DNA from: Smithellaceae bacterium
Lineage (GTDB): Bacteria; Desulfobacterota; Syntrophia; Syntrophales; Smithellaceae
NCBI GenBank assembly: GCA_028693285.1
Contig: JAQUVQ010000005.1
Location: forward strand, 19,160-83,159
DNA: 64,000 bases
Direction of reading: 5' to 3'
Shown here: piece after piece, positions 23,421-49,536 of the stretch
How the letters are laid out: every line of letters starts with the position of its first letter
Position numbering within the stretch: the first letter of the stretch is position 1
Translations under genes and position numbers: made by a program
Notes under the pieces: model-generated
Seen by the model: the letters and a program-made list of their open reading frames with translations, nothing else
Told to the model about the DNA's origin: nothing
The model's database searches: none

Positions 23421-23431
23421 AAGGAGGCGTC

Positions 23432-24676
23432 ATGTCCGAAGCAAAATCTGAAAAGGAAAAAAGGAAAATCCAGTCCGAAAAGAAAATGCGGGATATCATG
23501 ACCGCCTACTATATCGACGCCAAAACGGCCCGGCAGAACAACAAGAAGGTGGCCTGGATCACGAGCGGCGGGCCGGTGGAGCCGCTGATCGCCATGGATA
23601 TCATTCCCGTCTATCCGGAAAACCACGGGGCCATGATCGGCGCCAGCAAAATGGGCGTGGACCTGTGCGAAAAAGCCGAGGCGATGGGCTATTCCAACGA
23701 CCTGTGTTCCTACGCCCGCTCCGACATCTCCTGCGCGACGGTCAACGGCGGACCGATCGGCGGCCTGCCGGAGCCGGACATGCTGGTGTGCTGCAACAAT
23801 ATCTGCGGAACCGTCCTGAAATGGTACGAAGTCCAGGCGCGCTATTTCAATATTCCCCTGTTTATTTTCGACACGCCCTTTTGCCATACGGAATATACAA
23901 AAGAGGCGAAGCGCTATGTGGAGCGGCAGATTGGGGAATATGTCGCCTTTCTCGAAGGCGTCTGCGGCCGCAAAATGGATCAGGACCGCATGAAGGACGT
24001 CGGCAGAATCTCCTTTGAAGGCCAGAAGCTGTGGCAGGAAGTCCTGGATACGGCGGTCAACAAGCCTTCTCCCATGACGGCTTTCGACGCTTTTTTTCAC
24101 CTGGCGCTCATCGTGACCCTGCGGGGAACACAGCAGACCATCGATTACTACCAGGGCTTGCTGGCCGAGATGAAAGACCGGATTCGTGACGGCATCGGCG
24201 CCATTGCGCAGGAAAAGTACCGTTTGCTCTGGGACAATCTTCCGATCTGGTACCGGATGAAGTGGCTGTCGAAGAAATTTGCCGAACACGACGCCTGCCT
24301 GGTGGCCGACACGTACACCTCGGCCTGGTGCGGAGCGATGAAGTATATCGACGAAAACAAATTTCTGGATTCGATGGCCGAGGCCTACTCGCGCATTTAC
24401 CTGAACATCGGCGTCGATGAAATGGCCCGCATGGTCATCGCGATGATCGACAAATATCAGGTGGACGGATTTGTGCTGCATTCCAACCGCAGCTGCAAAC
24501 CCTATTCGCTGGGCCAGTTCGATATTCAGCGGATCGTCGAAAAGGAGCGGAACATTCCCTGTCTGATGATCGAAGCGGACATGGTGGATGAACGGAGTTT
24601 TTCGGAAAGCCAGATCTCGACGAGAATCGACGCCTTTATGGAAATCATCAAGGACAGGAAAAAGGGAAGGGCGTAA
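23432..24676 (+). CDS. 2-hydroxyacyl-CoA dehydratase-family subunit (HgdA/BcrB-like)
   Basis: AAGGAGG-N6-ATG at 23432. The text VAWITSGGPVEPLIAMDIIPVYPENHGA and HSNRSCKPYSLGQ is typical of the large dehydratase subunit. Confidence 0.85.
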   Translation: MSEAKSEKEKRKIQSEKKMRDIMTAYYIDAKTARQNNKKVAWITSGGPVEPLIAMDIIPVYPENHGAMIGASKMGVDLCEKAEAMGYSNDLCSYARSDISCATVNGGPIGGLPEPDMLVCCNNICGTVLKWYEVQARYFNIPLFIFDTPFCHTEYTKEAKRYVERQIGEYVAFLEGVCGRKMDQDRMKDVGRISFEGQKLWQEVLDTAVNKPSPMTAFDAFFHLALIVTLRGTQQTIDYYQGLLAEMKDRIRDGIGAIAQEKYRLLWDNLPIWYRMKWLSKKFAEHDACLVADTYTSAWCGAMKYIDENKFLDSMAEAYSRIYLNIGVDEMARMVIAMIDKYQVDGFVLHSNRSCKPYSLGQFDIQRIVEKERNIPCLMIEADMVDERSFSESQISTRIDAFMEIIKDRKKGRA

Positions 24677-24768
24677 AGTTCAGCGGTTCAATACGGAAGA
24701 CGAACGACAGGGAACGGCTGGAAACCGCTTTCCGCAGGAGATAATCGGCGAAATACAAGATACGGGAA

Positions 24769-25536
24769 ATGATAACAGCAGGCATTGACATCGGGTCCAT
24801 CACGGCAAAAGCGGCTCTGGTTGAAAACGGGAAAATTCTGGGCACGAAGGTGACGTTTACCGGCTATAACGCGGAGGCGGCAGGCCGAAAGGTTTATGAA
24901 GATGTGCTGGCCGACTCCGGCCTGGAGGCGTCAGCCGTGGGTAAAATTGTATCCACCGGCTACGGGCGCAATTCAGTGAAATTTGCCGACAGGACGTTCA
25001 CGGAAATCATGGCGCATGCCGCGGGGGCGAATTTCCTGAAGCCGGAAGTCCGCACCATTATCGACATCGGCGGACAGGACAGCAAGGCCATCGCGCTCGA
25101 TGAGCGGGGAAAAGTCAAAAATTTTGTCATGAACGACAAGTGCGCCGCGGGGACCGGCCGTTTTCTGGAAGTGATGGCGCGCGCGCTGGAAGTCGATCTG
25201 GATGAGTTCGGCGCCATGTCGCTTCAGTCGGGCGCCCCTTCTAAAATCAGCAGCCTGTGCACGGTCTTCGCGGAATCGGAAGTCATTTCCCTGATCGCCC
25301 GCGGCGAACAGAGATTCGACATCATTGCCGGCATCCATGAATCGATCGCGGCGCGCATCTCCTCGATGATCGCGCGCGTCGGCCTGACCGAACCGGTCAT
25401 GATCACCGGCGGCGTCGCGCGCAATGCCGGTGTGGTGGCCGCGCTGGAAGGAAAACTCGGCGTGAAGATCGCCGTGCTGCCCTCCGCGCAGGTCAACGGC
25501 GCGATCGGTGCGGCAATCCTGGCGTCGTCTCTTTGA
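24769..25536 (+). CDS. CoA-substrate-specific enzyme activase (HgdC/BcrAD/BadFG ATPase)
   Basis: 255 aa. It has ASKHA-fold motifs GIDIGSITAKA and DIGGQDSK, plus NDKCAAGTGRFLE carrying the cluster-bridging Cys context. Confidence 0.9.
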   Translation: MITAGIDIGSITAKAALVENGKILGTKVTFTGYNAEAAGRKVYEDVLADSGLEASAVGKIVSTGYGRNSVKFADRTFTEIMAHAAGANFLKPEVRTIIDIGGQDSKAIALDERGKVKNFVMNDKCAAGTGRFLEVMARALEVDLDEFGAMSLQSGAPSKISSLCTVFAESEVISLIARGEQRFDIIAGIHESIAARISSMIARVGLTEPVMITGGVARNAGVVAALEGKLGVKIAVLPSAQVNGAIGAAILASSL

Positions 25537-35836: not shown

Positions 35837-35904
35837 AAGGATCAGAAACATCATGGACGCAGGTTTTCGGCTTATTGGTTACGGGAATCATTTTGAAGGT
35901 TTCT

Positions 35905-36456
35905 ATGCTGTTAAAAGGCTGCTTACACACCCACACAACCTGTTCGGACGGAAAATTATCCCCGCAGGAAGTTGCGGATGCTTATGAGTCAAAAGGCTAT
36001 GATTTCATTGCCTTTACGGATCATGATTACCTTTTGAAGCCAAACTATCTGGAGACTTACGGCCGGGTCAGGACAAGCATGATGGTTTTCTACGGCATAG
36101 AGCTTTCGGTTTTTGTCAACGGAAACATTCATGTGGCAAAAATTGAAGGCGACCGGGAGCAGCTCCATGTCTTCAATCACATCAGCGAGTATGATTTCAC
36201 ACCCCAGCAGCTGATCGTGCGTCTGCGGCAGCTCGAAAAAATGTATCCCCTGGATGCGGTGGAAATCACGAAGAAAGGATTCCGCGATTCGGTTTTTGAA
36301 GCGCTCGATCTTCCCTATCCCAAAATCGCCTCCGATGACTCGCACACACTGACGGGGATTGGCCGGGCGTGGGTAGAGTTGGATGCGAAGAGGGAAAAGG
36401 ATTCCATTATTCACGCGATCCGGCACGGTGAATTCTGGAACTGTTACCTGAGTTGA
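35905..36456 (+). CDS. PHP-domain (polymerase/histidinol-phosphatase-like) metal-dependent phosphoesterase
   Basis: The likely start is ATG 35905 (the track lists TTG 35875). It has the PHP motif LHTHTTCSDG and a second motif FTDHD. Confidence 0.7.
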   Translation: MLLKGCLHTHTTCSDGKLSPQEVADAYESKGYDFIAFTDHDYLLKPNYLETYGRVRTSMMVFYGIELSVFVNGNIHVAKIEGDREQLHVFNHISEYDFTPQQLIVRLRQLEKMYPLDAVEITKKGFRDSVFEALDLPYPKIASDDSHTLTGIGRAWVELDAKREKDSIIHAIRHGEFWNCYLS

Positions 36457-36485: not shown

Positions 36486-36538
36486 CAAATACGGATCAGT
36501 CATTATTCGGTCATATGAAACAGGAAGGAGGACGGGGA

Positions 36539-37684
36539 ATGGGAAAAAGATTGGCGGTCTGCGCAGTGGCGCAGATTAAAAACCATCCGGATTATCATGA
36601 TTGGCGTTTTCAAAACATGCTGCTCGAATGTTTCGAACCGATCGTGGAGGAGACAAAGGTGACCTTCGACATGGACAAGGGCATCCGGACGATCATCACC
36701 TGCTCGGACGACATGTTCGATGCCCGGACCATATCCGACAACGGGATTACGGATGTCGTCGGGGCGCATTTTCGCGGCGAGGAAAAGATGGCACAGGAAA
36801 GCATCAATGGCCTCGGATACGCCATGGCCTGCATTCTCTCCGGCCATGACGACGTGATCCTTTTTATGGGCCACTGCAAGGAGTCGCAGGGGGAAAGCCG
36901 CAGGATGATTTCCAATCTTGCCTATGATCCCTTCTACTGCAGACCGCTGGGCATGGACTACCACAACGTGGACGCGCTGCAGGCCCGCGCTTACATGGAA
37001 AAATCAAAGGTGACGGACGAGCATCTGGCAAAAGTGGTGGTCCGCTCCAGAGCGAACGGCAAAAAAAATCCCTATGGCCGCGAAAACAAAATCGTCAGTG
37101 AAAAAGACGTGCTGAATTCACCGATGTACTCGGATCCCCTCCGGGAAATGCACATCTATCCGGTCACCGACTGGGCCTACGGAATGCTTTTGTGCAGTGA
37201 AAAGCGGGCCAAGGAGTTCACCAAGAAACCCGTCTGGATCACAGGATACGGCAGCTGCATGGACCGGTATTTCCTCGGCGACCGCGACATCGCTTCGAAT
37301 TTTTCGCTCAAGAACGCCGCCAAGCGGGCGTACGCCATGGCCGGCATTAAAGATCCCCGAAAAGACGTCCAGGTTTTTGAACTGAGCGATCAAGCTGCAC
37401 ATCAGCTCCCGATGTGGGCCGAAGGCGTCGGCATCGCGGAAGAAGGACGGGGCGGCCAGTGGATCGACGATGGCGGCATGGAACGGTTCAATGTCAACCT
37501 GTCCGGCGGCCAGCTCAACGGCAATCCGCTTCTTCTGGGCGGCGCGGCCAGGGCTCTGGAATGCTACTACCAGTTGTCGGGGCAGGCAGGCAAGCGGCAG
37601 GTCAAGGGTGCAAAACGGGCAGTTGCCCAGGCGGCGACCGGCGGGGCCGGGCAGCATCAGGCCGTCATCGTCATGGAAGCGTAG
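36539..37684 (+). CDS. SCPx/DitF-type thiolase-like protein, catalytically degenerate (pair 1, subunit A)
   Basis: GGAAGGAGG upstream of ATG 36539. The thiolase-like fold text is paralogous to 45835-46980. By-eye alignment gives Ala at the nucleophile Cys position and GNP instead of GHP. Confidence 0.8.
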   Translation: MGKRLAVCAVAQIKNHPDYHDWRFQNMLLECFEPIVEETKVTFDMDKGIRTIITCSDDMFDARTISDNGITDVVGAHFRGEEKMAQESINGLGYAMACILSGHDDVILFMGHCKESQGESRRMISNLAYDPFYCRPLGMDYHNVDALQARAYMEKSKVTDEHLAKVVVRSRANGKKNPYGRENKIVSEKDVLNSPMYSDPLREMHIYPVTDWAYGMLLCSEKRAKEFTKKPVWITGYGSCMDRYFLGDRDIASNFSLKNAAKRAYAMAGIKDPRKDVQVFELSDQAAHQLPMWAEGVGIAEEGRGGQWIDDGGMERFNVNLSGGQLNGNPLLLGGAARALECYYQLSGQAGKRQVKGAKRAVAQAATGGAGQHQAVIVMEA

Positions 37685-37696
37685 GGAGGTTGAATC

Positions 37697-38896
37697 ATGG
37701 CACATCAAAAGAAAAACAGAAATGTTGGAATTATCGGCATCGGTCAGACCAAACATTCCAGTCACCGCGAGGATGTCAACCAGCCTGAATTGATCCATGA
37801 AGCGGTCAGCCTGGCCCTGAAAGACGCGAACCTCACCATGAAAGACATTGACTGCGTGGTTCACGGCAATATGGAGCTTTTTGAAATGGTCCACTCGCCG
37901 GATCTCTGGCACGTGCTGGGAACCGGCGCCTACGGCAAGGACTCGATCCGGATCACTACCGGCGGGACGGTCGGGGCCACTCTGTCGTGCGCCTCGGACA
38001 ATCTGGTGGCGTCGGGAATGTACGACATCGTCATGGCCATCGGATTTGAAAAGCTTCAGGAGGGGCACACCACGGGCGGCATCACCAACATGGCCTGCCC
38101 GCTGTGGTTCAGGAAAATTCAGGCGGGAGCGCTCACCGGCTCCTCGGCCTATGACGTGGAGCGGGAATTCGGCCTGGAGCGGGCGGATCGCGCATCGCTC
38201 ATGTACCGGATCATCATGGACAAGCACGCAAGCCTCAATCCCAACGCCCACCGGGCATTCGGCCTGGACTTCAGCCAGATCGACGATCTGATCCGGACTT
38301 CGCCGAAGCTTGTCGGCGAACTGAAGCTCATCGAAATGTGCTCGCAGTCGGACGGCGCCTGCTGCGTGATCTACGCGTGCGAGAAAAAGGCGAAAGAGCT
38401 GTCCAAAATTCCGGTCTGGATCCGCGACCATATCACCGTCCACAAGGAAGAGAACTTCACGATCTTCGGCTACGACCGGAAATATCCGGTGCTGAAAACG
38501 CATAAATTCGCGGCCGAGCAGCTTTTCAAACGCAACGGCATCAATGACCCTTTGAATTATTTTGACGTGTTCGAAATGTATGATCCCGCGACCTGGTGGG
38601 CCATCGACTGGATTCGGGACTTCTTCAATCTGCAGGGGGACGAGCACCTCAGACTCATCGAGGAAAAGGAGATCATGATCGGCGGCAAGATGCCCATCAA
38701 TCCGTCCGGCGGCGTGATCGGATCCAATCCGATCGGCGCGACGGCGCTGGTCCGGGTGGCCGAGGCGGCCCTGCAGGTGCGCGGCAATGCCGGCCCGCAC
38801 CAGATTCCCACCCCGGTCAATCATGCACTCGCGTCAGGGTTTGGCGGCACCATGTGGACCGTGATGACAATGCTCGAAAAGGAACTTAACTGGTAG
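37697..38896 (+). CDS. SCPx-type thiolase-like protein, catalytically degenerate (pair 1, subunit B)
   Basis: The text IGIGQTKHS..., TTGGTVGAT...AIGFEKL and INPSGGVIGSNPIGATA shows SCPx-thiolase family spacing, but with Gly for the nucleophile Cys and Asn for His. Confidence 0.85.
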   Translation: MAHQKKNRNVGIIGIGQTKHSSHREDVNQPELIHEAVSLALKDANLTMKDIDCVVHGNMELFEMVHSPDLWHVLGTGAYGKDSIRITTGGTVGATLSCASDNLVASGMYDIVMAIGFEKLQEGHTTGGITNMACPLWFRKIQAGALTGSSAYDVEREFGLERADRASLMYRIIMDKHASLNPNAHRAFGLDFSQIDDLIRTSPKLVGELKLIEMCSQSDGACCVIYACEKKAKELSKIPVWIRDHITVHKEENFTIFGYDRKYPVLKTHKFAAEQLFKRNGINDPLNYFDVFEMYDPATWWAIDWIRDFFNLQGDEHLRLIEEKEIMIGGKMPINPSGGVIGSNPIGATALVRVAEAALQVRGNAGPHQIPTPVNHALASGFGGTMWTVMTMLEKELNW

Positions 38897-38906
38897 GAGG
38901 ACGATC

Positions 38907-40097
38907 ATGGCAGAATACTGGGGAGTAAAGGTAGAAGATATATTCAATACGATGAAAGACCGGTTCCGCCCCGAAGGCGCCAAGGATGTCGATGCGGTTT
39001 TCGGCTATGACATCGCCGGGGAAGGCAAATGGAAGCTGACGGTAAAGAACAATGCGATGACGCTCGAAAAGGCGGATCAATTATCCGGCTGCATCGCAAC
39101 CATGTCGGCCGACGGCGAGACCTTTGTCGGTGTCAACACGGGCAAAGTCGATGCGACCAACGCCTTTATGAGCGGAAAATTCAAGGTGGAAGGCGACATG
39201 GGCGCCTTCGGAAAGACCGGGAAACTTTTCCGCAAATTCGTCCTCGCCAAAAAGGAGATGACGACCAAAGAGTATCTTGCGGACATGTTCGCCACCATCG
39301 TGCCCCGCTTTAAGGCCAGGGAGGCCGAAGGGCTCGAAGCTTCCTTCGGTTTCGATCTCGGCGGACCGGACGGCGGCAAGTGGACCGTCTTTATTAAGGA
39401 TAAGGTCTGCACGGTTACGGAAACAATTGAAGGCAAGCCGACGGTTACGCTGGAATTCAACGACGCCAGGGATTACGTTGATTTCATCCTTGGAAAGATC
39501 GACGCGCAGAGCATCCTGGCCGCGGGAAAAGCGTCCGCGAAGGGCGATATCAACATGATGGCGTCGAAATGGCCGATCCTGTTTGAGAAATACAAAGATC
39601 CCATGGCCGGCGCTGTTCAGGAACAGGAACTGCTGGTGCTCAAAAAGACCATATCGTTGAACGAGAAGTTTTCAACCGGCCCCATCATGGGCAAGTTCCT
39701 CAAGGGCCTGAAAGAGAAAAAAATATTCGCGAATCGATGCCCCGAGTGCGGCCGGCTGCAGTTGCCGCCGCGGGAAGTGTGCGCGGAATGCCGCGTGCGC
39801 GCCGGTGAGTTCGTGGAGGTCGGGCCCAAGGGGGAAGTCCGATATATGGACGTGGTCTATTACGCCATGCCTGATCCCCTGACCGGCGTGGCCCGGGAAA
39901 CCCCGTATGGCTCCATCTTTATCCGACTGGATGGCTGCAAGGGCAACGAGACCCTGCCGCACTTTATCCGGAAGGATCAGATCGAAAAGATTCAGAGGGG
40001 CTGGAATGAAAAGAAAGGGACCCGCGTCCGCCCCGTCTGGGAGGAAAAACGGATCGGAGACATCTGGGACATTAAATACTTTGAGATTGATGAGTAA
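38907..40097 (+). CDS. SCP2 - SCP2 - DUF35 (Zn-ribbon/OB-fold) fusion protein
   Basis: There are two SCP2-like repeats (AVFGYDIAGEGKWKL...NAFMSGKFKVEGDMGAFGK and ASFGFDLGGPDGGKWTV...AAGKASAKGDINMMAS). They are followed by a DUF35 module with CPECG-N10-CAEC and an OB-fold tail (YGSIFIRLDG). Confidence 0.8.
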   Translation: MAEYWGVKVEDIFNTMKDRFRPEGAKDVDAVFGYDIAGEGKWKLTVKNNAMTLEKADQLSGCIATMSADGETFVGVNTGKVDATNAFMSGKFKVEGDMGAFGKTGKLFRKFVLAKKEMTTKEYLADMFATIVPRFKAREAEGLEASFGFDLGGPDGGKWTVFIKDKVCTVTETIEGKPTVTLEFNDARDYVDFILGKIDAQSILAAGKASAKGDINMMASKWPILFEKYKDPMAGAVQEQELLVLKKTISLNEKFSTGPIMGKFLKGLKEKKIFANRCPECGRLQLPPREVCAECRVRAGEFVEVGPKGEVRYMDVVYYAMPDPLTGVARETPYGSIFIRLDGCKGNETLPHFIRKDQIEKIQRGWNEKKGTRVRPVWEEKRIGDIWDIKYFEIDE

Positions 40098-40108: not shown

Positions 40109-41536
40109 ATGACAACCAAAAAGACCGCAGGAGTCGAAGACAGCTATCAAATCGAAGGCAAAATGGCGCTCCCTTATTCTTACTTTGCCGGCCGGGTGGG
40201 CAGCAAATTCATTACGACCCTCCGGGATCAGAAGAAAATCATGGGAGTGAAATGCCCCGCCTGCAATACGGTCTATGTGCCGCCGCGGCAGGTCTGCGAC
40301 GTGGACTTTACCGATATTCGCGACGCGTGGGTTGAATTGGAAAGCACGGGCACGGTGAAGAATTTCACGGTCGTGCGTTATGACGACAAGCATCTGCCGA
40401 GAAAGGCGCCGTTTGTCCTGGCCCTCATTCAACTGGAGGGGGCCGGCACGCCGTTTGCGCACATTCTGGAGGAGTGCAAAATCGAAGACGTCAGGATCGG
40501 AATGAAGGTCGAGGCGGTATTCGCGAAGGAAACGACCCAAACCATTCTTGATATCGATCACTTCAAACCCGCGGCGGAAAAGGCGTCGATTCATGAGGTG
40601 AACGCGCGCAGGAAACAATGGGTTCCGACCGATGAACCCGCCGAAGCATCAACCAGAAAAGGAGGGAAGCCCGATATGTCCAAGCCCGTTATTATTACCG
40701 CGGCGCTCACCGGCGCCGCTACGATGAGAAATCAGAACCCGTCCGTACCCTACAAACCGGAGGAATTCGCGGAAGAAGCCTACAAGTGCTGGAAAGCCGG
40801 CGCCGCGATGGTGCATGTGCATGCCCGGGAAGACGGAGGAATGGCCACCCATGACCACGCGAGGATCAAGGCGACCTATGATGCCATCAAGGATAAGTGT
40901 CCGGAACTCATCGTCTGTCTGAGCTCCGCCGTCGGCATGGGCAAGACCGCCGAGCAGCGGATCTCCCAGATTGTCTATATCAAACCCGACATGGCCTCGC
41001 TCAACACCAACACCATGAACTTCGGCATCGTGGACCGCAAAACCGGCAAGATCTTCATCGACTATGTGTTTGAAAACACTTTCGGCATGCTGCAGGACTT
41101 CGGCAAAGTTATGGAAGAAAACGGCGTGAAGCCGGAAATCGAGTGCTACGACATGGGCGGTCTGGACAATACCCTCATGATCGGCAAGCAGGGCATTTTC
41201 AGCGATCCGATGAACTTCAATTTCGTCTGGGGCGTCGCCGGCGGGCAGCAGTTCAGGACCGAAGCCTTCATCGCCATGATGAACGCGCTTCCCCCGAAGG
41301 CGAACTTCACCACCTGCGGCGTCGGGATGGATCAGTATCCCTGCATCATGCAGTCCTGCATTCTCGGCGGGCACATGAGAGTCGGTCTGGAGGACAACAT
41401 CCGGATGCCCAACGGGGCGCTGGCCAAGGGGAGTTACGAGCAGGTGGAGGTGGCGGTGAACATCGCCAACTGTCTGGGACGCCCGGTGGCGACCACGGAC
41501 GAGGCTCGTCTCATTATGGGGCTCAGGAAGCGGTAA
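40109..41536 (+). CDS. DUF35 (Zn-ribbon/OB-fold) - BKACE (beta-keto acid cleavage enzyme, DUF849) fusion protein
   Basis: The N-terminal DUF35 has CPACN...VCDVD and APFVLALIQLEG. From about aa 190 the text is BKACE (PVIITAALTGAAT, AAMVHVHARED, ECYDMGG, GGHMRVGLEDN). Confidence 0.8.
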   Translation: MTTKKTAGVEDSYQIEGKMALPYSYFAGRVGSKFITTLRDQKKIMGVKCPACNTVYVPPRQVCDVDFTDIRDAWVELESTGTVKNFTVVRYDDKHLPRKAPFVLALIQLEGAGTPFAHILEECKIEDVRIGMKVEAVFAKETTQTILDIDHFKPAAEKASIHEVNARRKQWVPTDEPAEASTRKGGKPDMSKPVIITAALTGAATMRNQNPSVPYKPEEFAEEAYKCWKAGAAMVHVHAREDGGMATHDHARIKATYDAIKDKCPELIVCLSSAVGMGKTAEQRISQIVYIKPDMASLNTNTMNFGIVDRKTGKIFIDYVFENTFGMLQDFGKVMEENGVKPEIECYDMGGLDNTLMIGKQGIFSDPMNFNFVWGVAGGQQFRTEAFIAMMNALPPKANFTTCGVGMDQYPCIMQSCILGGHMRVGLEDNIRMPNGALAKGSYEQVEVAVNIANCLGRPVATTDEARLIMGLRKR

Positions 41537-41546
41537 AAAAACGGGT

Positions 41547-41587
41547 GGTTCGCCGCGGATGCCGGACAAGGGCGCCTGCGGCGAACC
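41547..41587 (+). other. Intercistronic stem-loop (10-bp perfect GC-rich stem, 21-nt loop)
   Basis: GGTTCGCCGC (41547-41556) pairs with GCGGCGAACC (41578-41587). It lies between the BKACE fusion and the ligase gene and has no U-tract. Confidence 0.5.
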
Positions 41588-41615
41588 GCTCTGGATCGAT
41601 TCGGGAGAACGCGCA

Positions 41616-43466
41616 ATGAAAATCGCAGAAAAAACCATGAACGACGTTTTTAGGAACCGCGTTCAAAAATATCAAGACCGTCTTGCCGTTGAAAAAAAGA
41701 TGAACGGCGTGTGGCACACCGCCACCTGGAACGAATACTACGAGCGGTCGCGCGCCGTCGGCATGGGGCTGTATGCCCTGGGGATTCGCAAAGGAGACAT
41801 GGTGTCCATTCTGTCCGAAAACCGGCTGGAATGGATCTACACCGACATGGGCGCGCTGGGAATCGGCGCCTGCGTGATTCCGATCTATCCGACGCTGACG
41901 GCCGAGGAGATCGAGTACATCCTCAATAATTCCGAATCAAAGGTTATTGTGACGGAAGACCGCGGCCAGCTCAAAAAAGTGCTGGCCGTCATTGAGAGGT
42001 GCCCCGGCATTGAAAAGATCGTCGTGATGGAGGAAAAGGACGCTCAGGGGCATCCCGGCGTGATGAGCTTTACGGCGCTGATGGAACTGGGAAGGAAAAA
42101 GCATGCCGAAGACCCTTCCCTTTTTGAGAAGCTCTCCCGGGAAGTGACGGTCGATGATCTGGCTACTCTCGTATATACGTCCGGTACGACCGGCTTGCCC
42201 AAGGGCGCCATGATCAGCCACGGGAACGTTTTCTGGATTGTGAAATCCCTGGACGCGGTCCAGCCTCCGTTTGCCGACGATCAGGACGTGCTGGTTGCCT
42301 TTCTTCCCCTCTCCCACGTGTTTCAGCGGATTCCCGGACATTTTTATGCCATGCACCGCGGGATCACCATCTCCTATGCCCAGTCGATCGACACGCTTCT
42401 GACGGACTTCGAAGAAAAGAGGCCGACCATGATTCTGGCCGTTCCGCGCGTGTGTGAAAAAGTGTACCAGAAGATCATTACGCAGGTGAAGGAACAGTCC
42501 CCTTTCAAGCAGAAGGTGTTTTACTGGGGGCAGTGTGTCGGCAACCGGATCAGCGAACTTCGCGAGAATCACAAGCCCATTCCGCCGGGGCTCAGACTGA
42601 AATACAAAATCGCCTATGCCGTCATCTTTAAAAAGCTCCAGCAGAAGCTGGGCGGACGGTTGAAATGGATGACGGCTGCCGGCGCGCCCACGGCGCCGGA
42701 AATTATCCGGTTCTTCAACGCCGCCGGAATTACGGTCATTCAGGGATACGGCATGACCGAAACGACGGCGCCGGCGTCCATCCAGTCCCTGTCCGATTTT
42801 CGCATCGGCACGACCGGCAAGCCGATGCCCGGCCAGGACATCAGGATCGCCGAAGACGGAGAGATTCTGATCAAGGGCGGAAATGTCATGAAGGGATACT
42901 GGAAGCTGCCGGAGGAAACCCGCGCCGTATTCACGCCGGACGGTTACCTGATGTCGGGCGACATCGGGAAGTTCGACGAGGAAGGCAATCTCCTCATCAC
43001 GGACCGCAAGAAGGATCTTCTCATCACCTCAGGAGGCAAAAACATCGCTCCGCAGATGATCGAAGGGCTGTTCAAGTCCGATCCGCTGTTTACCCAGTTT
43101 ATCGTGATCGGTGAAAGGAAAAAATACCTGACTGGATTGTGCAACATCGATCTGGAGATTGCCGCGATGATCGCCGACGATGAAAAGATCCCCTATCAGA
43201 AACCGGCGGACCTGCTGGACAACGACCGCTTCCTGGCGATTGTCAGAAACCATGTCGAGGAGCGCAACACGCATCTGGCCAAGTACGAAACCATCAAGGA
43301 TTACCGGATCATCAAAACGGATTTTTCCCAGGAGGGCGGCGAACTGACGGCGACGCTCAAACTGAAGCGCAAGGTGATTAATGAGAAGTACCAGGATCTG
43401 ATTGACGAGATGTACGGGAAGGAAGCGGTCGATGAGCTTTACGGGCAAAAGCAGTCCCGGGCGTGA
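41616..43466 (+). CDS. Long-chain acyl-CoA synthetase (AMP-forming, FadD/ACSL-like)
   Basis: The likely start is ATG 41616 (MKIAEKTMNDVF). It has the AMP-binding motif YTSGTTGLPKGA, GYGMTET, and C-terminal TDRKKDLLITSGGKNIAP. Confidence 0.9.
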   Translation: MKIAEKTMNDVFRNRVQKYQDRLAVEKKMNGVWHTATWNEYYERSRAVGMGLYALGIRKGDMVSILSENRLEWIYTDMGALGIGACVIPIYPTLTAEEIEYILNNSESKVIVTEDRGQLKKVLAVIERCPGIEKIVVMEEKDAQGHPGVMSFTALMELGRKKHAEDPSLFEKLSREVTVDDLATLVYTSGTTGLPKGAMISHGNVFWIVKSLDAVQPPFADDQDVLVAFLPLSHVFQRIPGHFYAMHRGITISYAQSIDTLLTDFEEKRPTMILAVPRVCEKVYQKIITQVKEQSPFKQKVFYWGQCVGNRISELRENHKPIPPGLRLKYKIAYAVIFKKLQQKLGGRLKWMTAAGAPTAPEIIRFFNAAGITVIQGYGMTETTAPASIQSLSDFRIGTTGKPMPGQDIRIAEDGEILIKGGNVMKGYWKLPEETRAVFTPDGYLMSGDIGKFDEEGNLLITDRKKDLLITSGGKNIAPQMIEGLFKSDPLFTQFIVIGERKKYLTGLCNIDLEIAAMIADDEKIPYQKPADLLDNDRFLAIVRNHVEERNTHLAKYETIKDYRIIKTDFSQEGGELTATLKLKRKVINEKYQDLIDEMYGKEAVDELYGQKQSRA

Positions 43467-43510: not shown

Positions 43511-44506
43511 ATGAATAAGGCAGTGGAATTGAAGCAGGGGCAGAATCAGCTTTTCTCTGATCCGAATGCGGACAAAGCGAGGGAGTTTTTCCGCAATAAA
43601 TCACGCGCCATGGTCAACAAAGTCACCACGGTGGACGAAGCGGTGAAAAGACTGGTCAAAGACGGCGACTATATCGCCATCGGCGGATTCGGCGCCAACC
43701 GCATCCCGACTGCGGTGCTTCATGAGATTGCCCGCCAGGGAAAGAAAAATCTGGCGTTTGCCGGCCACACCGCCACGCACGACATGCAGATTCTGGTCGG
43801 CGGGGAATGCATTGACCGCCTGGATATCGCCTACGTCATCGGTCTGGAGGCGCGCGGCCTTTCCCCCAACGCGCGCCGCGCGGTGGAGAGCGGGAAAATC
43901 AAGCTCACGGAATGGACGAACGCGACCCTCTCCTGGCGGATCAAAGCTGCGGCCATGGGGCTTTCCTTTCTTCCGGCGCGCAATATCATGGGAACCGATA
44001 CGTTCAAGTACAGTGCGGCCAAGGAAATTCTCTGTCCTTTCACCGGACAGAAATTTGCCGCCTTCCCGGCCCTGTATCCGGATTTCGCGGCCATCCATGT
44101 CCATGAGTGCGACGTTTACGGGAACGCGCACGTTTTCGGATCGACCGTGTCGGACCAGGATTTGGCCAAAGCGTCCAAACGCGTCGTGATCACCACGGAG
44201 CGGATCATCTCCAACGATGAGATCCGGCGGCAGCCGACGGCTACCTTCATTCCGTTCTGGTGCGTGGACGCGGTCGTGGAAGTGCCCTACGGCAGCTATC
44301 CCGGAAATATGCCCTACGAGTATTTTTCCGACGAAGAGCATATCCGGCAGTGGCTCAAAATCGAACGCGATCCCGAAGAGTTCCGGAAATTTTTCAAACG
44401 GCAGATTCTGGACACGAAAAATTTCTACGAATACCTGGAGCTCAACGGAGGCATCGCGAGAATGCTGAAGCTGCGCGCCATCGAGCATCTGACGCATAAT
44501 CGATAA
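43511..44506 (+). CDS. Class I CoA-transferase subunit A (glutaconate CoA-transferase GctA-like)
   Basis: 331 aa. The text DGDYIAIGGFGANRIP fits the family, and it is paired with a B subunit 11 nt downstream. Confidence 0.8.
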   Translation: MNKAVELKQGQNQLFSDPNADKAREFFRNKSRAMVNKVTTVDEAVKRLVKDGDYIAIGGFGANRIPTAVLHEIARQGKKNLAFAGHTATHDMQILVGGECIDRLDIAYVIGLEARGLSPNARRAVESGKIKLTEWTNATLSWRIKAAAMGLSFLPARNIMGTDTFKYSAAKEILCPFTGQKFAAFPALYPDFAAIHVHECDVYGNAHVFGSTVSDQDLAKASKRVVITTERIISNDEIRRQPTATFIPFWCVDAVVEVPYGSYPGNMPYEYFSDEEHIRQWLKIERDPEEFRKFFKRQILDTKNFYEYLELNGGIARMLKLRAIEHLTHNR

Positions 44507-44517
44507 GGAGGAGGAAT

Positions 44518-45288
44518 ATGGCGGACTTCAATGCAATGGAACTGATGATCTGCGTGGCCGCGCGGAACCTGGAGGACGGCGCGACCGTCGTCGTGGGAAC
44601 GGGCGCGCCCTGCGCCGCGGCGATGCTGTCGCAGAAAACGCACTCGCCCAATCTTACCATCATGTTTGAAGCCGGCGGCGTCGCGCCGATTCTGCCGTCC
44701 ATGCCGATCTCGGTGGGGGATTCGCGGACGTTTCACAAGGCCATTCTGGCCAGCTCCATGCCGGACATTATGGAAACCTGTCAGCGCGGCATGGTGGACT
44801 ACACCTTTCTGGGCGGCGCGCAGATCGATATGTACGGAAACATCAATTCCACCATGATCGGCACCAATCACGCGAAGCCGAAAGTGCGGTTCCCGGGATC
44901 CGGCGGCGCCAACGATCTGGCCTCCCTGTGCTGGCGGACCATGGTGATGACGCCGCAGGATTCCAAGCGCTTCACGGACAAGATCGATTTCATTACGTCC
45001 CCGGGATATCTGAGCGGCGGGAATTCGCGCTATGAGGCGGGGCTTCCCAAGGGAACCGGCCCCTACCGGATCATTACCAATATGGCGATCATGGGCTTTG
45101 ACGACACGTCCAAGCGGATGAAGGTGCTGAACATCAACCCCGGATACAACCGGACGGATATCCAGGACAACTGCGGCTTTGAACTTCTCTGGGCCGACCG
45201 GATCACGGAGACGGAGCCGCCCCGTGAAGACGAACTGCGGATTCTCCGCGAGGAAGTGGATCCGCACCGGTATATCATAGGAAGATAG
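44518..45288 (+). CDS. Class I CoA-transferase subunit B (GctB-like)
   Basis: 256 aa. Its text includes VVVGTGAPCAAAML and IMFEAGGV. The Glu in IMFEAGGV is in the context of the catalytic Glu of family I transferases. Confidence 0.8.
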   Translation: MADFNAMELMICVAARNLEDGATVVVGTGAPCAAAMLSQKTHSPNLTIMFEAGGVAPILPSMPISVGDSRTFHKAILASSMPDIMETCQRGMVDYTFLGGAQIDMYGNINSTMIGTNHAKPKVRFPGSGGANDLASLCWRTMVMTPQDSKRFTDKIDFITSPGYLSGGNSRYEAGLPKGTGPYRIITNMAIMGFDDTSKRMKVLNINPGYNRTDIQDNCGFELLWADRITETEPPREDELRILREEVDPHRYIIGR

Positions 45289-45350: not shown

Positions 45351-45818
45351 ATGTCCGATCAATTTCAAGGCATTGAGCCGATGGTTTACCAAAGCCAGAT
45401 CAACGTTCCCTATTCCTGGTGGGCAGGGGACACGGCGACCCGGTTTTTTGTGACGCTGCGCGATGAAAAGAAAATCACCGCGACCAAATGCGGCGACTGC
45501 GGAAAGGTATTGCTGCCTCCGCGCAAGATTTGTCCGCGCTGCTTCACCGAAAACATGGAATGGGTGAAGGTGTCCGATGAAGGGACCCTGCTCACGTTTG
45601 CGGTGGCGGGGCGGCCGTTCGCCGCCATTCCCGCGGATAAAAAGGTTCCAGTGATCTGGGGGCTGATTCAACTCGACGGCGCCGATACCGCCCTGCTGCA
45701 TTATCTGGACGGCGTCAGGCCCGAGGAAGTGAGCATCGGCATGCGCGTCCGGGCGGTGTACTCCGAGGTGCGCAAAGGCACCATCCGCGACATTTCGCAT
45801 TTCAAACCGGTTAAATAG
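45351..45818 (+). CDS. DUF35 Zn-ribbon/OB-fold protein (acyl-CoA-associated)
   Basis: 155 aa. It has CGDCG-N10-CPRC followed by an OB-fold (IWGLIQLDGADT..., IGMRVRAVY). Confidence 0.85.
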   Translation: MSDQFQGIEPMVYQSQINVPYSWWAGDTATRFFVTLRDEKKITATKCGDCGKVLLPPRKICPRCFTENMEWVKVSDEGTLLTFAVAGRPFAAIPADKKVPVIWGLIQLDGADTALLHYLDGVRPEEVSIGMRVRAVYSEVRKGTIRDISHFKPVK

Positions 45819-45834
45819 GGAAGGAGCCACAGCT

Positions 45835-46980
45835 ATGGACAGAGCAGCGATCATCGGCGTCGGAATGACGAAAATTGAAAAAAGAAAGATCAGCCAGACC
45901 TTTGCCGACATGGCGTGGGAGGCCGTGAACAAGGCCCTCACCGACGCGGGGATGACCCTCGACGACATCGACAACGTGGTGACCACCTCCAGCGACTTCT
46001 GGGACGGCCGGACGATTTCCTGCATGGCCGTGGGGGACGCCAGCGGCGCGGCCCACAAAAACATCTCCTGCGTCGAGGGCGACGGCACCTACGGCGCTTT
46101 TTACGGCATGACGAGGGCTCTTTCCGGCTCCTACCGGACCACCCTGGTGACGGGGCATACGAAAGGTTCCGAGAGCGTGTCGAGTCTCATTACCAACGCA
46201 GCCTTTGATCCCATCTACGAGCGGAGTCTGGGCATGGACATGATCACCGCCTGCGCGATGCAGGCGCGATCCTACATGCACCGCACAAAAACGACCGCCG
46301 AACAGTTGGCCCTGGTTTCCGTGAAGAACCACGGCAACGCGCTTAAAAATCCGCTGGCGCAGCTTCCCATGAAAATCACCGTCGAGGATGTTCTGAAATC
46401 TGAAATGGTCGCGGATCCGCTTCACAAGCTGGACTGCTCTCCGGTATCCGACGGATGCGCGGCGGTCATCATCGCCCACGAATCGGTGGCGGAAAAGTTC
46501 CGGCAGAAGCCGGTCTGGGTGCGCGGCGTGTCCTTCTGCGCGGACAGCTTCTTCTTTGGAGACCGGGACCTCTCCCGCGCCCGTTCGCTTGCCCAGGCGG
46601 CCAGGAAGGCCTACGCGATGGCCGGCGTCCACGACCCGAAAAAGGAAATCGATGTCGCGGAAGTCTCCGACGCTTTTACCTATCAGGAGCTTCTGTGGCT
46701 GGAGGAAATGGGGCTTGCCGACGACGCGGCGGCTGGAAAACGGCTGGAGCGGGGAGAGTTCAACCTCGACGGCCCGCTGCCGGTGAACGCCTCCGGCGGA
46801 CTGCTTTCCGGGCATCCCGTCATCGCCGCCGGCCTCTACAGCATGGCCGCGGTGGTCCGGCAGATTCGGGGAGACGCGGGCGGTTTTCAGGTGCAAAAAG
46901 CGAAAACCGGCCTGGTGCAGGGTGTCAACGGGCTGGGCGGCCAGTCCCACTGTGTGTGGATTCTGGACAAGGACAAGTAG
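45835..46980 (+). CDS. SCPx-type thiolase-like protein retaining Cys and GHP (pair 2, subunit A)
   Basis: Paralog of 36539-37684. It has NISCVEGDG at the nucleophile region and GGLLSGHPV near the C-terminus. Confidence 0.85.
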   Translation: MDRAAIIGVGMTKIEKRKISQTFADMAWEAVNKALTDAGMTLDDIDNVVTTSSDFWDGRTISCMAVGDASGAAHKNISCVEGDGTYGAFYGMTRALSGSYRTTLVTGHTKGSESVSSLITNAAFDPIYERSLGMDMITACAMQARSYMHRTKTTAEQLALVSVKNHGNALKNPLAQLPMKITVEDVLKSEMVADPLHKLDCSPVSDGCAAVIIAHESVAEKFRQKPVWVRGVSFCADSFFFGDRDLSRARSLAQAARKAYAMAGVHDPKKEIDVAEVSDAFTYQELLWLEEMGLADDAAAGKRLERGEFNLDGPLPVNASGGLLSGHPVIAAGLYSMAAVVRQIRGDAGGFQVQKAKTGLVQGVNGLGGQSHCVWILDKDK

Positions 46981-46991
46981 GAGGACAAACC

Positions 46992-48149
46992 ATGGCGAAA
47001 CGAGTTGCAATTGTAGGAACCGGACAGACCTTCCATAAGAGCCATCGCCCCGACGTCAACGGACAGGAGCTGATCCATGAGGCAGTTGCCCGTGCGCTGG
47101 CGGACGCCGACCTGAAGCTGAAGGACATCGACGCCGTCGTCATCGGGAACATGGATCATTTTGAGGGGATCAACTACGTGGACTGCTGGAGCGTGGACGG
47201 TTCCGGCGGGACGATGAAGCCCATTATCAAGCTGACCACCGGCGGAACCACCGGCTGCACCGTCGCCATCGGCGGATATCATCTGGTCGGCTCGGGAATG
47301 TTCGACCGAGTGCTGATCATCGGCTGGGAAAAGAACTCCGAATCGGACACGACCGGCGCCATCACCACGGCTTTTGATCCCATCTGGGACCGCCTGGTCT
47401 TCGCCGGCGCAATATCGGGTCTGGCGGCGGAGGCGCAGGCTTACATGGCCCGCTACGGCGCGACGGACCGCGACGGCGCCCGGGTGAGCGTGCGCGACCG
47501 GAAACATGCGATGAACAATCCGCACGCGCAGCTTCGAAAGGAAGTGAGCCTGGAAGAAGTGCTGGCTTCCCCGATGCTGGCGGACCCGATCCATCTTTTG
47601 GACGTTTGCCCCCGCTCCGACGGCGCGTGCGCGGTCATCATGGCCAGTGAAGACATCGCCGAAAAGATCTGCCCGAAACCGGACTGGATCTGGGGCACGG
47701 CTGCGCGCCACTCCTACAGCTACCTGGGCGACGCCGATTACGGCCGCCTGACCAGCATGCGCGAAGGATCGCAGGAACTCTGGAAGAAGGCGGGCATCAA
47801 AGAGCCGCGCAAAGAACTGGATGTTGTCGAGATGTACCAGCCCTATTCGTTCGGCGGTTTGATCTGGATCGAGGACATGGGCCTGGTGGGCCCCGGCGAG
47901 GCGCCGCGGTATATCTGGGACGGCAACACCGACATGGGCGGCGAACTGCCGATCAATCCGTCGGGCGGCGTGATTTCCTGCAATCCCATCGGGGCGACCG
48001 GGCTGATCCGCTGCGCGGAAGCGGCCATGCAGGTGATGGGCAAAGCCGAAGGCCGGCAGGTTCCGGACGTCAACTTTGCCTTCAGCAGCGGTTTCGGCGG
48101 CTGCTGGTGGACCGATATGATTCTGCACGGAAAGAAAAAACCGGCCTGA
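46992..48149 (+). CDS. SCPx-type thiolase-like protein, catalytically degenerate (pair 2, subunit B)
   Basis: GGAGG upstream of ATG 46992 (the track ORF 46455-48149 has a spurious N-extension). It is a paralog of 37697-38896, with TTGGTTGCT...IIGWEKN and INPSGGVISCNPIGATG. Confidence 0.85.
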   Translation: MAKRVAIVGTGQTFHKSHRPDVNGQELIHEAVARALADADLKLKDIDAVVIGNMDHFEGINYVDCWSVDGSGGTMKPIIKLTTGGTTGCTVAIGGYHLVGSGMFDRVLIIGWEKNSESDTTGAITTAFDPIWDRLVFAGAISGLAAEAQAYMARYGATDRDGARVSVRDRKHAMNNPHAQLRKEVSLEEVLASPMLADPIHLLDVCPRSDGACAVIMASEDIAEKICPKPDWIWGTAARHSYSYLGDADYGRLTSMREGSQELWKKAGIKEPRKELDVVEMYQPYSFGGLIWIEDMGLVGPGEAPRYIWDGNTDMGGELPINPSGGVISCNPIGATGLIRCAEAAMQVMGKAEGRQVPDVNFAFSSGFGGCWWTDMILHGKKKPA

Positions 48150-48169
48150 AGCAACAAGGAGGAACCAGC

Positions 48170-48634
48170 ATGGCGGAAAAAGAAAACATCATTATCGAAT
48201 CGGGCGACGCGGTTCAGCCCTTCGCGTATTCCGTGGGCATGCACGGAAGCAGGTTTTTTGCGGAGATTCGCGACCATAAGCGGTTTCTGGGGATCAAGTG
48301 CCCCAAATGCGGGAAGGTGTATATTCCGCCGCGCGGCGTCTGCGGAGACTGCTTTGTCGAGATGAAAGACTGGGTCGAAGTCGGGCCGAAAGGGGTCATC
48401 GGCACCTTTACGATTCTTCGCTACGCGTTTATCGACCCGGAAACGGGCGCGCAGAAGCCGGTCCCCTATGGCTACGGGTTTATCAGGTTTGACGGCGCCG
48501 ACACCCTGTTCCAGCACTACATCAACATTGAGGATGAAGCGAAGATTCGCGTGGGCGCCCGCGTGGAGCCGGTATTTGCCGGAGAGCGAAAGGGCAGCAT
48601 TCGGGATATTGAGTATTTTCGGGTCATCGACTGA
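48170..48634 (+). CDS. DUF35 Zn-ribbon/OB-fold protein
   Basis: AAGGAGG upstream of ATG 48170. It has CPKCG-N10-CGDC followed by an OB-fold (YGYGFIRFDGADT, VGARVEPVF). Confidence 0.85.
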   Translation: MAEKENIIIESGDAVQPFAYSVGMHGSRFFAEIRDHKRFLGIKCPKCGKVYIPPRGVCGDCFVEMKDWVEVGPKGVIGTFTILRYAFIDPETGAQKPVPYGYGFIRFDGADTLFQHYINIEDEAKIRVGARVEPVFAGERKGSIRDIEYFRVID

Positions 48635-49536
48635 TGGCCGCAAAGGAGTCGCCGACGGTTGAGATCAATCCATTCAAGCGGATTCTGAAGATGCCGGGGG
48701 CTCTGTGCGGGGGAATCAGCACCGGCAGCGATAAAATCCGCAGCGGATACGGCAACGGGGACTGCCTTTACTTTGATTTTGAGCACCTGGTCTTCGCCGT
48801 GGCGGACGGCACGGAACGCTTCCCCTGGGCGTCGAGGGATCTTTTGCAGCGGCTGTCGGAGAGGCTTTTGCGGTCCGGTTCCCCGGAAACGGCCCGGGAT
48901 TGGAAGGACATGATGAACACCGGGGTCTATGACGGCCAGAAGTACCAGCATAAGACGACCTTCAGCGCCGTCGCCCTTCGCCGTGAAGGAGAGGATGTTT
49001 TTCTGATCATCGCGAACGGAGGCGACAGCGTCGTAACGGTCATGGATGGCCTTACGGGAAAGATTCGCCGTCAGACGGGGCGCAACATGGATTTTGCGGG
49101 AAGAAGCAGGCAGATTGTGGATGTGACGGAGCACCGGATGCCGGACCGGGACCACCGGGTGCTTCTTTCCACGGACGGGTTCGATGATGTCTGGCGCTTC
49201 TATCTGCGCCGGTCGCCCGCCGGCTCCGCGCGCGGCGTTCTCGAAAGGGTTGGGCTGGACGGAATCGGCGAGGTGATTTCCGGGCTTCTGGAAGAGCACC
49301 GGGACCGTTTTGAGTATGATGATGTCGGCTTTATTCTTCTGGATCCGGGCGCGGTGAAGCCGGTGAAGGGAAAAGCTCTGATCATGGGAGGAACGCGGCC
49401 TTTTGAAGAAAATCGCTACCGGCTGCAGTATACACCGGAGGCGCATGACCGGTGGATCCCCGATGCCGAGTGGGCCGGACAGGAGGAAATGCTTGACGGC
49501 GCGGGAATCCGGGTGCTGAACACGGTGCGGTGCTGA
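48634..49536 (+). CDS. Divergent PP2C/SpoIIE-like phosphatase-fold protein
   Basis: The ATG shares its A (48634) with the upstream TGA stop. It has PP2C-like motif order: FAVADGTE, TTFSAVAL...LIIANGGDSVV, LLSTDGFDDV, YDDVGFILLD. Confidence 0.55.
   Translation: MAAKESPTVEINPFKRILKMPGALCGGISTGSDKIRSGYGNGDCLYFDFEHLVFAVADGTERFPWASRDLLQRLSERLLRSGSPETARDWKDMMNTGVYDGQKYQHKTTFSAVALRREGEDVFLIIANGGDSVVTVMDGLTGKIRRQTGRNMDFAGRSRQIVDVTEHRMPDRDHRVLLSTDGFDDVWRFYLRRSPAGSARGVLERVGLDGIGEVISGLLEEHRDRFEYDDVGFILLDPGAVKPVKGKALIMGGTRPFEENRYRLQYTPEAHDRWIPDAEWAGQEEMLDGAGIRVLNTVRC

Follow-up and report, generated by a model that had tools for sequence, protein, structure and literature searches.

What a bacterium gains by joining two sterol-carrier domains to a DUF35 module is the question raised by one gene in a 64,000-nucleotide stretch of contig JAQUVQ010000005.1 from a Smithellaceae bacterium (this whole stretch is the window referred to below). 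The gene product, P0001, is 396 amino acids (aa) long and has the order SCP2-SCP2-DUF35. Our answer is that P0001 is probably a non-catalytic adaptor, whose DUF35 would dock on a heteromer of two thiolase-fold proteins (A and B, or ThlA and ThlB) devoid of the nucleophilic Cys, and whose SCP2 arms would hold a hydrophobic substrate. The A/B core, judged by its catalytic motifs, is most likely a retro-aldol (aldolase-type) carbon-carbon lyase and not a thiolase. The SCP2-SCP2-DUF35 gene is one recurrent component of a wider module, not a singular oddity. The gene and its parts are as follows, pLDDT being the predicted local distance difference test of the AlphaFold2 (AF2) model.

38907..40097, + strand: P0001 gene, SCP2-SCP2-DUF35 protein, 396 aa; single open frame, stop codon included
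38895..38900, + strand: Shine-Dalgarno sequence AGGAGG, 6 nucleotides before the P0001 ATG and overlapping the TAG stop of ThlB (tight coupling)
38907..39251, + strand: SCP2 domain 1, residues 1-115 (Pfam; AF2 pLDDT 85-92; Foldseek to 8af2 and 1ikt)
39258..39602, + strand: SCP2 domain 2, residues 118-232 (Pfam; 28% identical to domain 1)
39603..39674, + strand: tether and N-terminal segment of the DUF35 module, residues 233-256 (pLDDT <50 for 235-255)
39702..39800, + strand: rubredoxin-like Cys4 zinc ribbon of DUF35, residues 266-298 (PF12172; four Cys)
39801..40094, + strand: OB-fold half of DUF35, residues 299-396; divergent, with small insertions (PF01796 match, paralogue alignment, Foldseek)

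The initial annotation placed the gene at 38907-40097 and read it as two SCP2 domains followed by a complete DUF35, that is, a zinc ribbon plus an OB fold. The coordinates proved exact, enclosing one open reading frame of 396 aa, and the domain reading was borne out by Pfam, by sequence search of the PDB, by the AF2 model and by Foldseek. Scanned separately, residues 1-117 match SCP2 (PF02036) with 53.1 bits (E 4.2e-14) and residues 118-240 with 33.8 bits (E 4.5e-8), so that both repeats pass the hidden Markov model check at the gathering threshold of 21.3 bits. The SCP2 motifs that had been quoted are present as AFMSGKFKVEGDM and AAGKASAKGDI. Both domains adopt the SCP2 fold in the model with pLDDT 85-92; their PDB matches include 1c44, 1qnd and 1ikt, and Foldseek pairs the model with 8af2, 1ikt, 1c44 and 3bdq at probability 1.0 and a template modelling (TM) score of 0.6-0.7 on the target. 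The top Foldseek matches are the C-terminal SCP2-like domains of alkylsulfatases. UbiJ is the SCP2-fold, lipid-holding subunit of the soluble Ubi metabolon. It too is a structural match (6h6o), although it has a single SCP2 domain, no DUF35 and a place in another pathway. As the two domains of P0001 are only 28% identical to each other (E 2e-13), their duplication is old. Domain 1 is strongly conserved, with a mean pairwise identity of 70% and 24 invariant columns in an alignment of 39 homologues, and MAEYWG forms the N-terminus of all aligned orthologues. Domain 2 is the unit that is doubled in orthologues of 513 aa carrying three SCP2 domains.

The DUF35 likewise looks complete. Its ribbon matches zf-ChsH2 (PF12172) with E 1e-8 and 33.7-35.3 bits (cut-off 23.2), and C278, C281, C292 and C295 are invariant in the 39 homologues. 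The OB half scores only 13.4 bits against OB_ChsH2_C (PF01796; cut-off 27.1), spanning profile positions 2-64 of 65. It is nevertheless probably real: the P0001 DUF35 can be aligned over its full length with the three further DUF35 modules of the window at 26-38% identity; the relatives P0123 (28.9 bits) and P0133 (32.1 bits) exceed the same cut-off; the ribbon cysteines and 36 of 97 OB columns are invariant, among them the loop PDPLTGxxRETPYG; and Foldseek matches the model to the DUF35 chains 3irb, 9myr_B, 6ok1_B and 5m3k_B/E at probability 1.0 over 123-141 columns. The model as a whole has a mean pLDDT of 75.6 and a predicted TM score of 0.37, which, together with the pLDDT below 50 at residues 235-255, makes P0001 look like beads on a string. 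Although predicted to be disordered, the tether is conserved in sequence (EQELLVLKKTIS), and its residues E239, E241, L242 and K246 are invariant. P0001 does not belong with BbsA, the small subunit of benzoylsuccinyl-CoA thiolase (NF053627; 14.5 bits against a cut-off of 250). Nor does any curated NCBIfam model reach its cut-off for P0001 or for the neighbouring proteins ThlA, ThlB, A', B', BKACE, PHP and ligase, which are encoded in the same operon.

35875..36456, + strand: PHP-domain metallohydrolase, whose gene invariably heads the module
36515..37684, + strand: thiolase-fold protein A (ThlA), probably a non-catalytic partner; no nucleophilic Cys, GHP changed to GNP, HDCF His position variable
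37697..38896, + strand: thiolase-fold protein B (ThlB), candidate aldolase-like catalytic subunit and probable docking partner of P0001; Gly at the nucleophile position, YDPA, GHP changed to SNP
40109..41536, + strand: DUF35 (Y-type) fused to a beta-keto-acid cleavage enzyme (BKACE)
41559..43466, + strand: FadD11-like long-chain acyl-CoA ligase
43511..45288, + strand: CoA-transferase subunits A (43511-44506) and B (44518-45288)
45351..48636, + strand: second, paralogous cassette, made up of
45351-45818, + strand: DUF35 (Y2, DUF35_3)
45835-46980, + strand: thiolase-fold protein A'
46992-48149, + strand: thiolase-fold protein B'
48170-48636, + strand: DUF35 (X2, DUF35_4), closest paralogue of the P0001 DUF35

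The operon of the window thus holds four thiolase-fold genes and four DUF35 modules. The gene downstream of P0001 starts 11 nucleotides past its stop and has an AGGAG of its own. Beyond the second cassette lie an unassigned 300-aa protein, a TetR regulator, acyl-CoA dehydrogenases, a canonical thiolase and a short-chain dehydrogenase/reductase (SDR).

ThlA and ThlB have the SCP2-type thiolase fold (PF22691), and the initial annotation spoke of a thiolase-like core. As a thiolase, that core fails at its catalytic landmarks, here read from HMMER alignments to the SCP2-type thiolases 7yvy, 6esq and 6hsj.

Position of the nucleophilic Cys: Ser in A; Gly in B, A' and B'
HDCF motif: SDQA in A; YDPA in B; SDAF in A'; YQPY in B'
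His of the GHP motif: Asn in A (GNP) and B (SNP); His kept in A'; Asn in B' (CNP)

The nucleophilic Cys has gone from all four proteins, and in ThlA and ThlB it is substituted together with HDCF and the GHP His, which sets them apart from SCPx and the SCP2-type thiolases and is why the core is read as something other than a thiolase; on these residues we reject a true thiolase core. The best NCBIfam matches of ThlA and ThlB, PRK08313 and PRK07937 (PRK06066 for ThlA), lie far below their cut-offs and bear the names 'thiolase domain-containing' or 'lipid-transfer protein'. The substitutions of ThlB are nearly uniform among 80 orthologues, with Gly at the nucleophile, Tyr at the HDCF His position and Asn at the GHP His each in 79 of them and Pro at the third motif position in 78. 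ThlA orthologues vary at the HDCF His position. In A', the motif is YDAF in 38 of 45 orthologues, the Tyr having been lost from the SDAF of the window copy; a Cys five residues before the nucleophile position is kept in 41 of the 45, and the GHP His is also kept.

The pattern in ThlB recalls the DUF35-bound steroid side-chain aldolases. Their catalytic base is a Tyr at the HDCF His position (YDHF in Ltp2, YDCY in Sal), Sal has Gly at the nucleophile position just as ThlB does, and the second catalytic residue is supplied by His and Tyr344 in Ltp2 and by Cys304 in Sal (PMC12329534). ThlB carries the Tyr at the first motif position and the Gly that replaces the nucleophilic Cys. The second catalytic residue is lacking from ThlB, Pro standing at the third motif position in 78 of 80 orthologues, so that YDPA, unlike YDHF and YDCY, offers neither His nor Cys. 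ThlB therefore resembles Ltp2 and Sal in design and, to judge from these residues, may act like them, while being a member of neither clade.

The likeness may extend to the assembly. In ChsH1-ChsH2(MaoC-DUF35)-Ltp2 and Shy(DUF35)-Sal (6ok1, 9myr; PMC12329534), a DUF35 with a fused domain docks on a C-C lyase of SCP2-thiolase fold without the Cys, as P0001 would do here; the Tyr at the HDCF His position is shared by ThlB, and the substrate, hydrophobic in the steroid systems, would by analogy be so here as well. The systems differ in that the cargo of P0001 is a tandem SCP2 array rather than an enzyme, that the core pairs two unlike subunits, A and B, and has DUF35 of two types, and that the hosts are strict anaerobes with no steroid context. 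A heteromeric pair of thiolase-fold proteins is also found in Ltp3-Ltp4, the aldol-lyase for branched hydrophobic acyl-CoA in the degradation of C24-branched sterol side chains (PMC6678751). The likeness of ThlA/ThlB to that pair is one of architecture and not of established orthology. We know of no SCP2 array or BKACE in the Ltp3/Ltp4 system. In the archaeal thiolase/HMG-CoA synthase/DUF35 complex (6esq), in PhlABC (5m3k) and in BbsAB (7pxp), DUF35 is a zinc-ribbon/OB staple that builds assemblies on thiolase-fold subunits; there it is a bare scaffold of 130-150 aa, whereas in P0001 it carries SCP2 domains. Eukaryotic SCPx (thiolase-SCP2) and MFE-2 (SDR-hydratase-SCP2) attach SCP2 to beta-oxidation-type enzymes acting on bulky or branched acyl-CoAs. 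P0001 departs from these in that its SCP2 domains are in tandem, would be attached non-covalently by way of the docking domain, and would serve an enzyme that is not a thiolase.

That DUF35 would place the SCP2 domains on the neighbouring thiolase-fold proteins fits both the known 1:1 docking of DUF35 on such subunits and an invariant gene order. In every solved complex matched by these proteins (6esq, 6ok1, 9myr, 5m3k, 7pxp), DUF35 partners a thiolase-fold protein. Locus comparisons rest on 80 kept loci from the 121 genomes found to carry relatives of P0001, all of them metagenome-assembled genomes. Every locus with sufficient flanking sequence, about 80 in at least two phyla, preserves the order PHP, ThlA, ThlB, SCP2(n)-DUF35, and the gene after SCP2(n)-DUF35 is always a second DUF35. 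This second DUF35 is fused to BKACE in most loci, the window included. It stands alone in 11 kept loci (e.g. L074), is likewise free-standing but followed by a separate BKACE gene in L093, and is fused to a MaoC hydratase in L091. The initial annotation's proposal that DUF35 puts a hydrophobic-ligand shuttle directly on a thiolase-like core thus agrees, as to the placement, with synteny and with known docking; the catalytic residues of the core are not those of a thiolase.

The history of the operon bears on which subunit is contacted. In the tree, the four DUF35 modules of the window fall into four orthologue clades, with an unrooted split (98/94 support) between the P0001 DUF35 and DUF35_4 (X1 and X2) on one side and the BKACE DUF35 and DUF35_3 (Y1 and Y2) on the other. 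The best pairwise match of X1 is X2, and for X1 the pairwise scores agree with the tree. Since A pairs with A' (35% identity) and B with B' (42%) in the same way, the two cassettes probably derive from duplication of an entire ancestral A-B-X-Y module, as far as sequences can tell. The branch of X1 is long (1.5 substitutions per site), so it evolved fast once it had gained its SCP2 domains. In both cassettes the X-type gene directly follows the B-type gene, and from gene order only we infer that B is the dock for X, and thereby for the SCP2 arm, and A the dock for Y.

At one and the same gene position, the X-type DUF35 occurs with differing cargoes. They were surveyed by an exhaustive HMMER search of 1.84 billion representatives together with Pfam and locus look-ups.

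X-type DUF35 with no SCP2: P0133, 176 aa; loci L094 and L096
X-type DUF35 with one SCP2: P0128, P0122 and P0127, about 280 aa; locus L095
X-type DUF35 with two SCP2: the window (P0001)
X-type DUF35 with three SCP2: P0067-P0073, about 513 aa
X-type DUF35 with an acyl-CoA ligase and two SCP2: P0124, 897 aa, in locus L091

The strongest comparative support for the adaptor role comes from L091. Its ligase-SCP2-SCP2-DUF35 fusion (P0124) unites substrate activation, SCP2 and dock on one chain, and its MaoC-DUF35 partner repeats the pairing of hydratase and aldolase seen in ChsH2-Ltp2 and Shy-Sal, to which an SCP2 arm is added. P0140 has yet another arrangement, KASIII-like-DUF35-SCP2-SCP2. In the triple-SCP2 proteins P0067-P0073, from Spirochaetota, the adjacent copies of the SCP2-2 type are 84-98% identical within a protein and 62-81% between orthologues, an excess that suggests concerted evolution, gene conversion or repeated recent duplication. 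Multimerization of SCP2 is widespread outside the P0001 family. Tandem SCP2 without DUF35 is seen in bacterial MFE-2-like proteins (SDR-SCP2(x2-4)-hydratase), ligase-SCP2-SCP2 proteins, FMN-reductase-SCP2x3 proteins and stand-alone SCP2x3 proteins, prokaryotic examples of such arrays being P0236, P0241, P0252, P0194 and P0181. The tethering of SCP2 to enzymes that process acyl-CoA is, from the variety of these fusions, a recurrent theme of which P0001 is one instance. The genome of the window itself holds a different combination of DUF35 and SCP2 on contig C60, where a 444-aa SDR-SCP2 protein (L090:6409-7743) lies beside a 914-aa KASIII/HMGCS-like-DUF35-SDR-SCP2 fusion (L090:7793-10537), followed by an SCP2-type thiolase, an acyl-CoA dehydrogenase, a family-III CoA-transferase, a split MaoC hydratase, a thioesterase and an AMP-ligase.

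Put together, the adaptor would work as follows. The X-type DUF35 of P0001 would dock on the thiolase-fold heteromer whose two genes immediately precede that of P0001, probably on subunit B, whose gene P0001 always follows. From there a tether of about 20 residues, predicted to be disordered, would bear the two SCP2 lipid-binding domains, which would hold the hydrophobic tail of an acyl-CoA or of a free keto or fatty acid and so raise its local concentration at the lyase. The arms may also pass substrate between the acyl-CoA ligase, the lyase core and the enzyme carried by the Y-type DUF35, which would be BKACE in the window and elsewhere a MaoC hydratase, or nothing where that DUF35 stands alone. 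The operon provides a lipid context for such a role in its FadD11-like ligase, TetR regulator, acyl-CoA dehydrogenases and canonical thiolase. The supposition of the initial annotation that the substrate is poorly soluble is plausible.

A number of points weigh against this adaptor role. As some modules have no SCP2, the core can do without these domains. The OB half of P0001 stays below the Pfam cut-off for PF01796, and the Foldseek superpositions on DUF35 chains have root-mean-square deviations of 12-13 A. Physical docking, the subunit contacted, lipid binding, the reaction and the substrate are all things that we infer, docking and the choice of subunit from gene order and analogy. SCP2-fold domains can be structural, as in alkylsulfatases, and the high conservation of SCP2 domain 1 could mark a surface for contact with other proteins and not a non-specific lipid pocket. 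From these last two points an explanation can be built in which DUF35 still docks on ThlA/ThlB and the SCP2 domains are structural or localizing, serving oligomerization or anchoring in a membrane or lipid phase. The alkylsulfatase domains that head the Foldseek matches do belong to an enzyme architecture, domain 1 is conserved beyond expectation for a non-specific lipid binder, and a conserved RFR motif with other invariant surface-type residues could form an interface. An integral structural role is nevertheless hard to square with an SCP2 copy number of 0-3 on an otherwise constant scaffold, and the repeated fusion of SCP2 to acyl-CoA ligases, SDRs and hydratases speaks for substrate handling; no transmembrane segment or amphipathic anchor turned up in P0001, though no formal test for them was made. 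We regard this explanation as unlikely.

There are two further explanations. P0001 might act on its own as an acyl-CoA or lipid carrier or sensor, without assembling with the thiolase-fold proteins, its DUF35 binding the CoA and its SCP2 domains the acyl tail. This idea is in keeping with Krishna et al. 2010, who proposed for DUF35 the role of delivering acyl-CoA non-covalently (PMC2954200), and to combine a CoA binder with SCP2 would be chemically sensible. The DUF35 structures solved since then (6esq, 6ok1, 9myr, 5m3k, 7pxp) are, however, all bound to a thiolase-fold subunit, and a free carrier leaves unexplained why DUF35 modules and thiolase-fold genes correspond 1:1 and why the P0001 gene so strictly adjoins that of ThlB, so that we consider it improbable. 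The model implicit in the initial annotation is a split SCPx: the core would be a true thiolase that thiolyses 3-oxoacyl-CoA, and SCP2 would be supplied in trans through DUF35. In its favour are the PF22691 fold of ThlA and ThlB and the precedent of eukaryotic SCPx, in which such a thiolase is fused to SCP2. This model is scarcely credible once the catalytic residues are considered, the nucleophilic Cys being missing from all four thiolase-fold proteins, HDCF being replaced by SDQA, YDPA, SDAF and YQPY, and the GHP His being Asn in three of the four; none of these proteins reaches an NCBIfam thiolase cut-off.

How familiar is this architecture? The initial annotation presented the fusion as unfamiliar, which it is not: SCP2 was already among the domains fused to DUF35 in the work of Krishna et al. 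2010 (PMC2954200), and relatives of P0001 occur in 121 genomes of a scan of one genome per GTDB species. A word-indexed search that included metagenomes returned 509 clusters (defined at 90% identity) with E <= 1e-3, and those listed show the P0001 architecture. The architecture is thus recurrent and has been on record since 2010. It has not been characterised in what we could find: no functional study, and no literature characterising an SCP2-DUF35 protein or its gene module, came to light. Where names are given by NCBI or JGI they are 'SCP2 sterol-binding domain-containing protein' or 'uncharacterized OB-fold protein/putative sterol carrier protein'. The kept loci come from Smithellaceae/Syntrophaceae, uncultured Spirochaetota (Leptospirales-like), other Thermodesulfobacteriota and Desulfomonilia. 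Carriage by 25 of 116 genomes of the window's own family, and by 18 of 401 in an even sample of the phylum, marks the gene as accessory and patchily spread. Copies binned as Spirochaetota on long contigs (up to 550 kb; L029, L033, L034, L036, L038, L041) share 80-84% protein identity with the Smithella copy, and the whole operon is syntenic with the window, which suggests either recent transfer of the module between phyla or mis-binning.

Some features of the neighbouring genes may be added. The best NCBIfam matches of the PHP protein, all sub-threshold, are CehA/McbA metallohydrolase, RNase RNM and 3',5'-nucleoside bisphosphate phosphatase. The ribbon of the BKACE-fused DUF35 (40109-41536, residues 49-66) reads C-x2-C...C-x2-D; of 78 loci, 58 have Asp as the fourth ligand and 20 have Cys. 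This Cys3Asp ribbon is reminiscent of the Cys3His ribbon of Shy (PMC12329534). In a thermodesulfobacteriotal locus (L074:10213-12628), a minimal module of TetR, PHP, A, B, SCP2x2-DUF35 and a stand-alone DUF35 is followed by an NMO-like flavoenzyme and a sulfatase, neighbours that in this single locus hint that substrates may be sulfated lipids. About 11 kb upstream of the module, at 22296-25536, the window encodes two HGD-D subunits (2-hydroxyacyl-CoA dehydratase/benzoyl-CoA reductase-like) and a BcrAD/BadFG-type activator ATPase.

A bolder pathway can be drawn, which we put forward tentatively as possible but doubtful. SCP2(n)-DUF35 would here be the substrate-holding arm of a hitherto undescribed, modular aldolytic metabolon of strict anaerobes, combining the A/B hub with BKACE, and the number of SCP2 copies (0-3) would suit each module to how hydrophobic its substrate is. 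Its hosts may be Smithellaceae/Syntrophaceae, uncultured Spirochaetota and other Desulfobacterota. The hub without Cys would cleave tertiary or otherwise non-oxidizable 3-hydroxyacyl-CoA stemming from blocked lipids, such as beta-branched or isoprenoid-like ones. Aldol-type cleavage of a 3-hydroxy-3-substituted acyl-CoA with a carboxymethyl branch would yield acetyl-CoA or propionyl-CoA and a free beta-keto acid; HMG-CoA lyase performs a comparable cleavage. In the established Kce chemistry, a beta-keto acid and acetyl-CoA give a shortened acyl-CoA and acetoacetate. BKACE on the second DUF35 would convert the released beta-keto acid in this way without ATP, and the CoA-transferase A/B of the operon would activate and recycle the acetoacetate. 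Release of a beta-keto acid by the lyase would explain why BKACE is stapled to it. The NCBIfam family names, from sub-threshold matches, are consistent with BKACE chemistry, and an aldol cleavage of this type has been drawn for Ltp3-Ltp4 (PMC6678751). The part of the pathway that calls for carboxylation of a beta-methyl group is unsupported, as no biotin carboxylase is linked to the operon and none of the four carboxyltransferase genes of the genome lies on this contig.

Complexes of thiolase-fold proteins stapled by DUF35 are an emerging theme that runs from archaeal mevalonate synthesis through toluene and steroid catabolism to Friedel-Crafts acylases. The P0001 family would add a new use of the staple, in which SCP2 modules, with or without an acyl-CoA ligase, are docked beside a C-C lyase while a second staple brings BKACE or a hydratase. 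If this is true, it would be a bacterial, in-trans counterpart to eukaryotic SCPx and MFE-2, and would indicate an uncharacterised route for the breakdown of hydrophobic, possibly branched lipids in syntrophic and fermentative anaerobes, organisms that matter in methanogenic digesters and at hydrocarbon-impacted sites.

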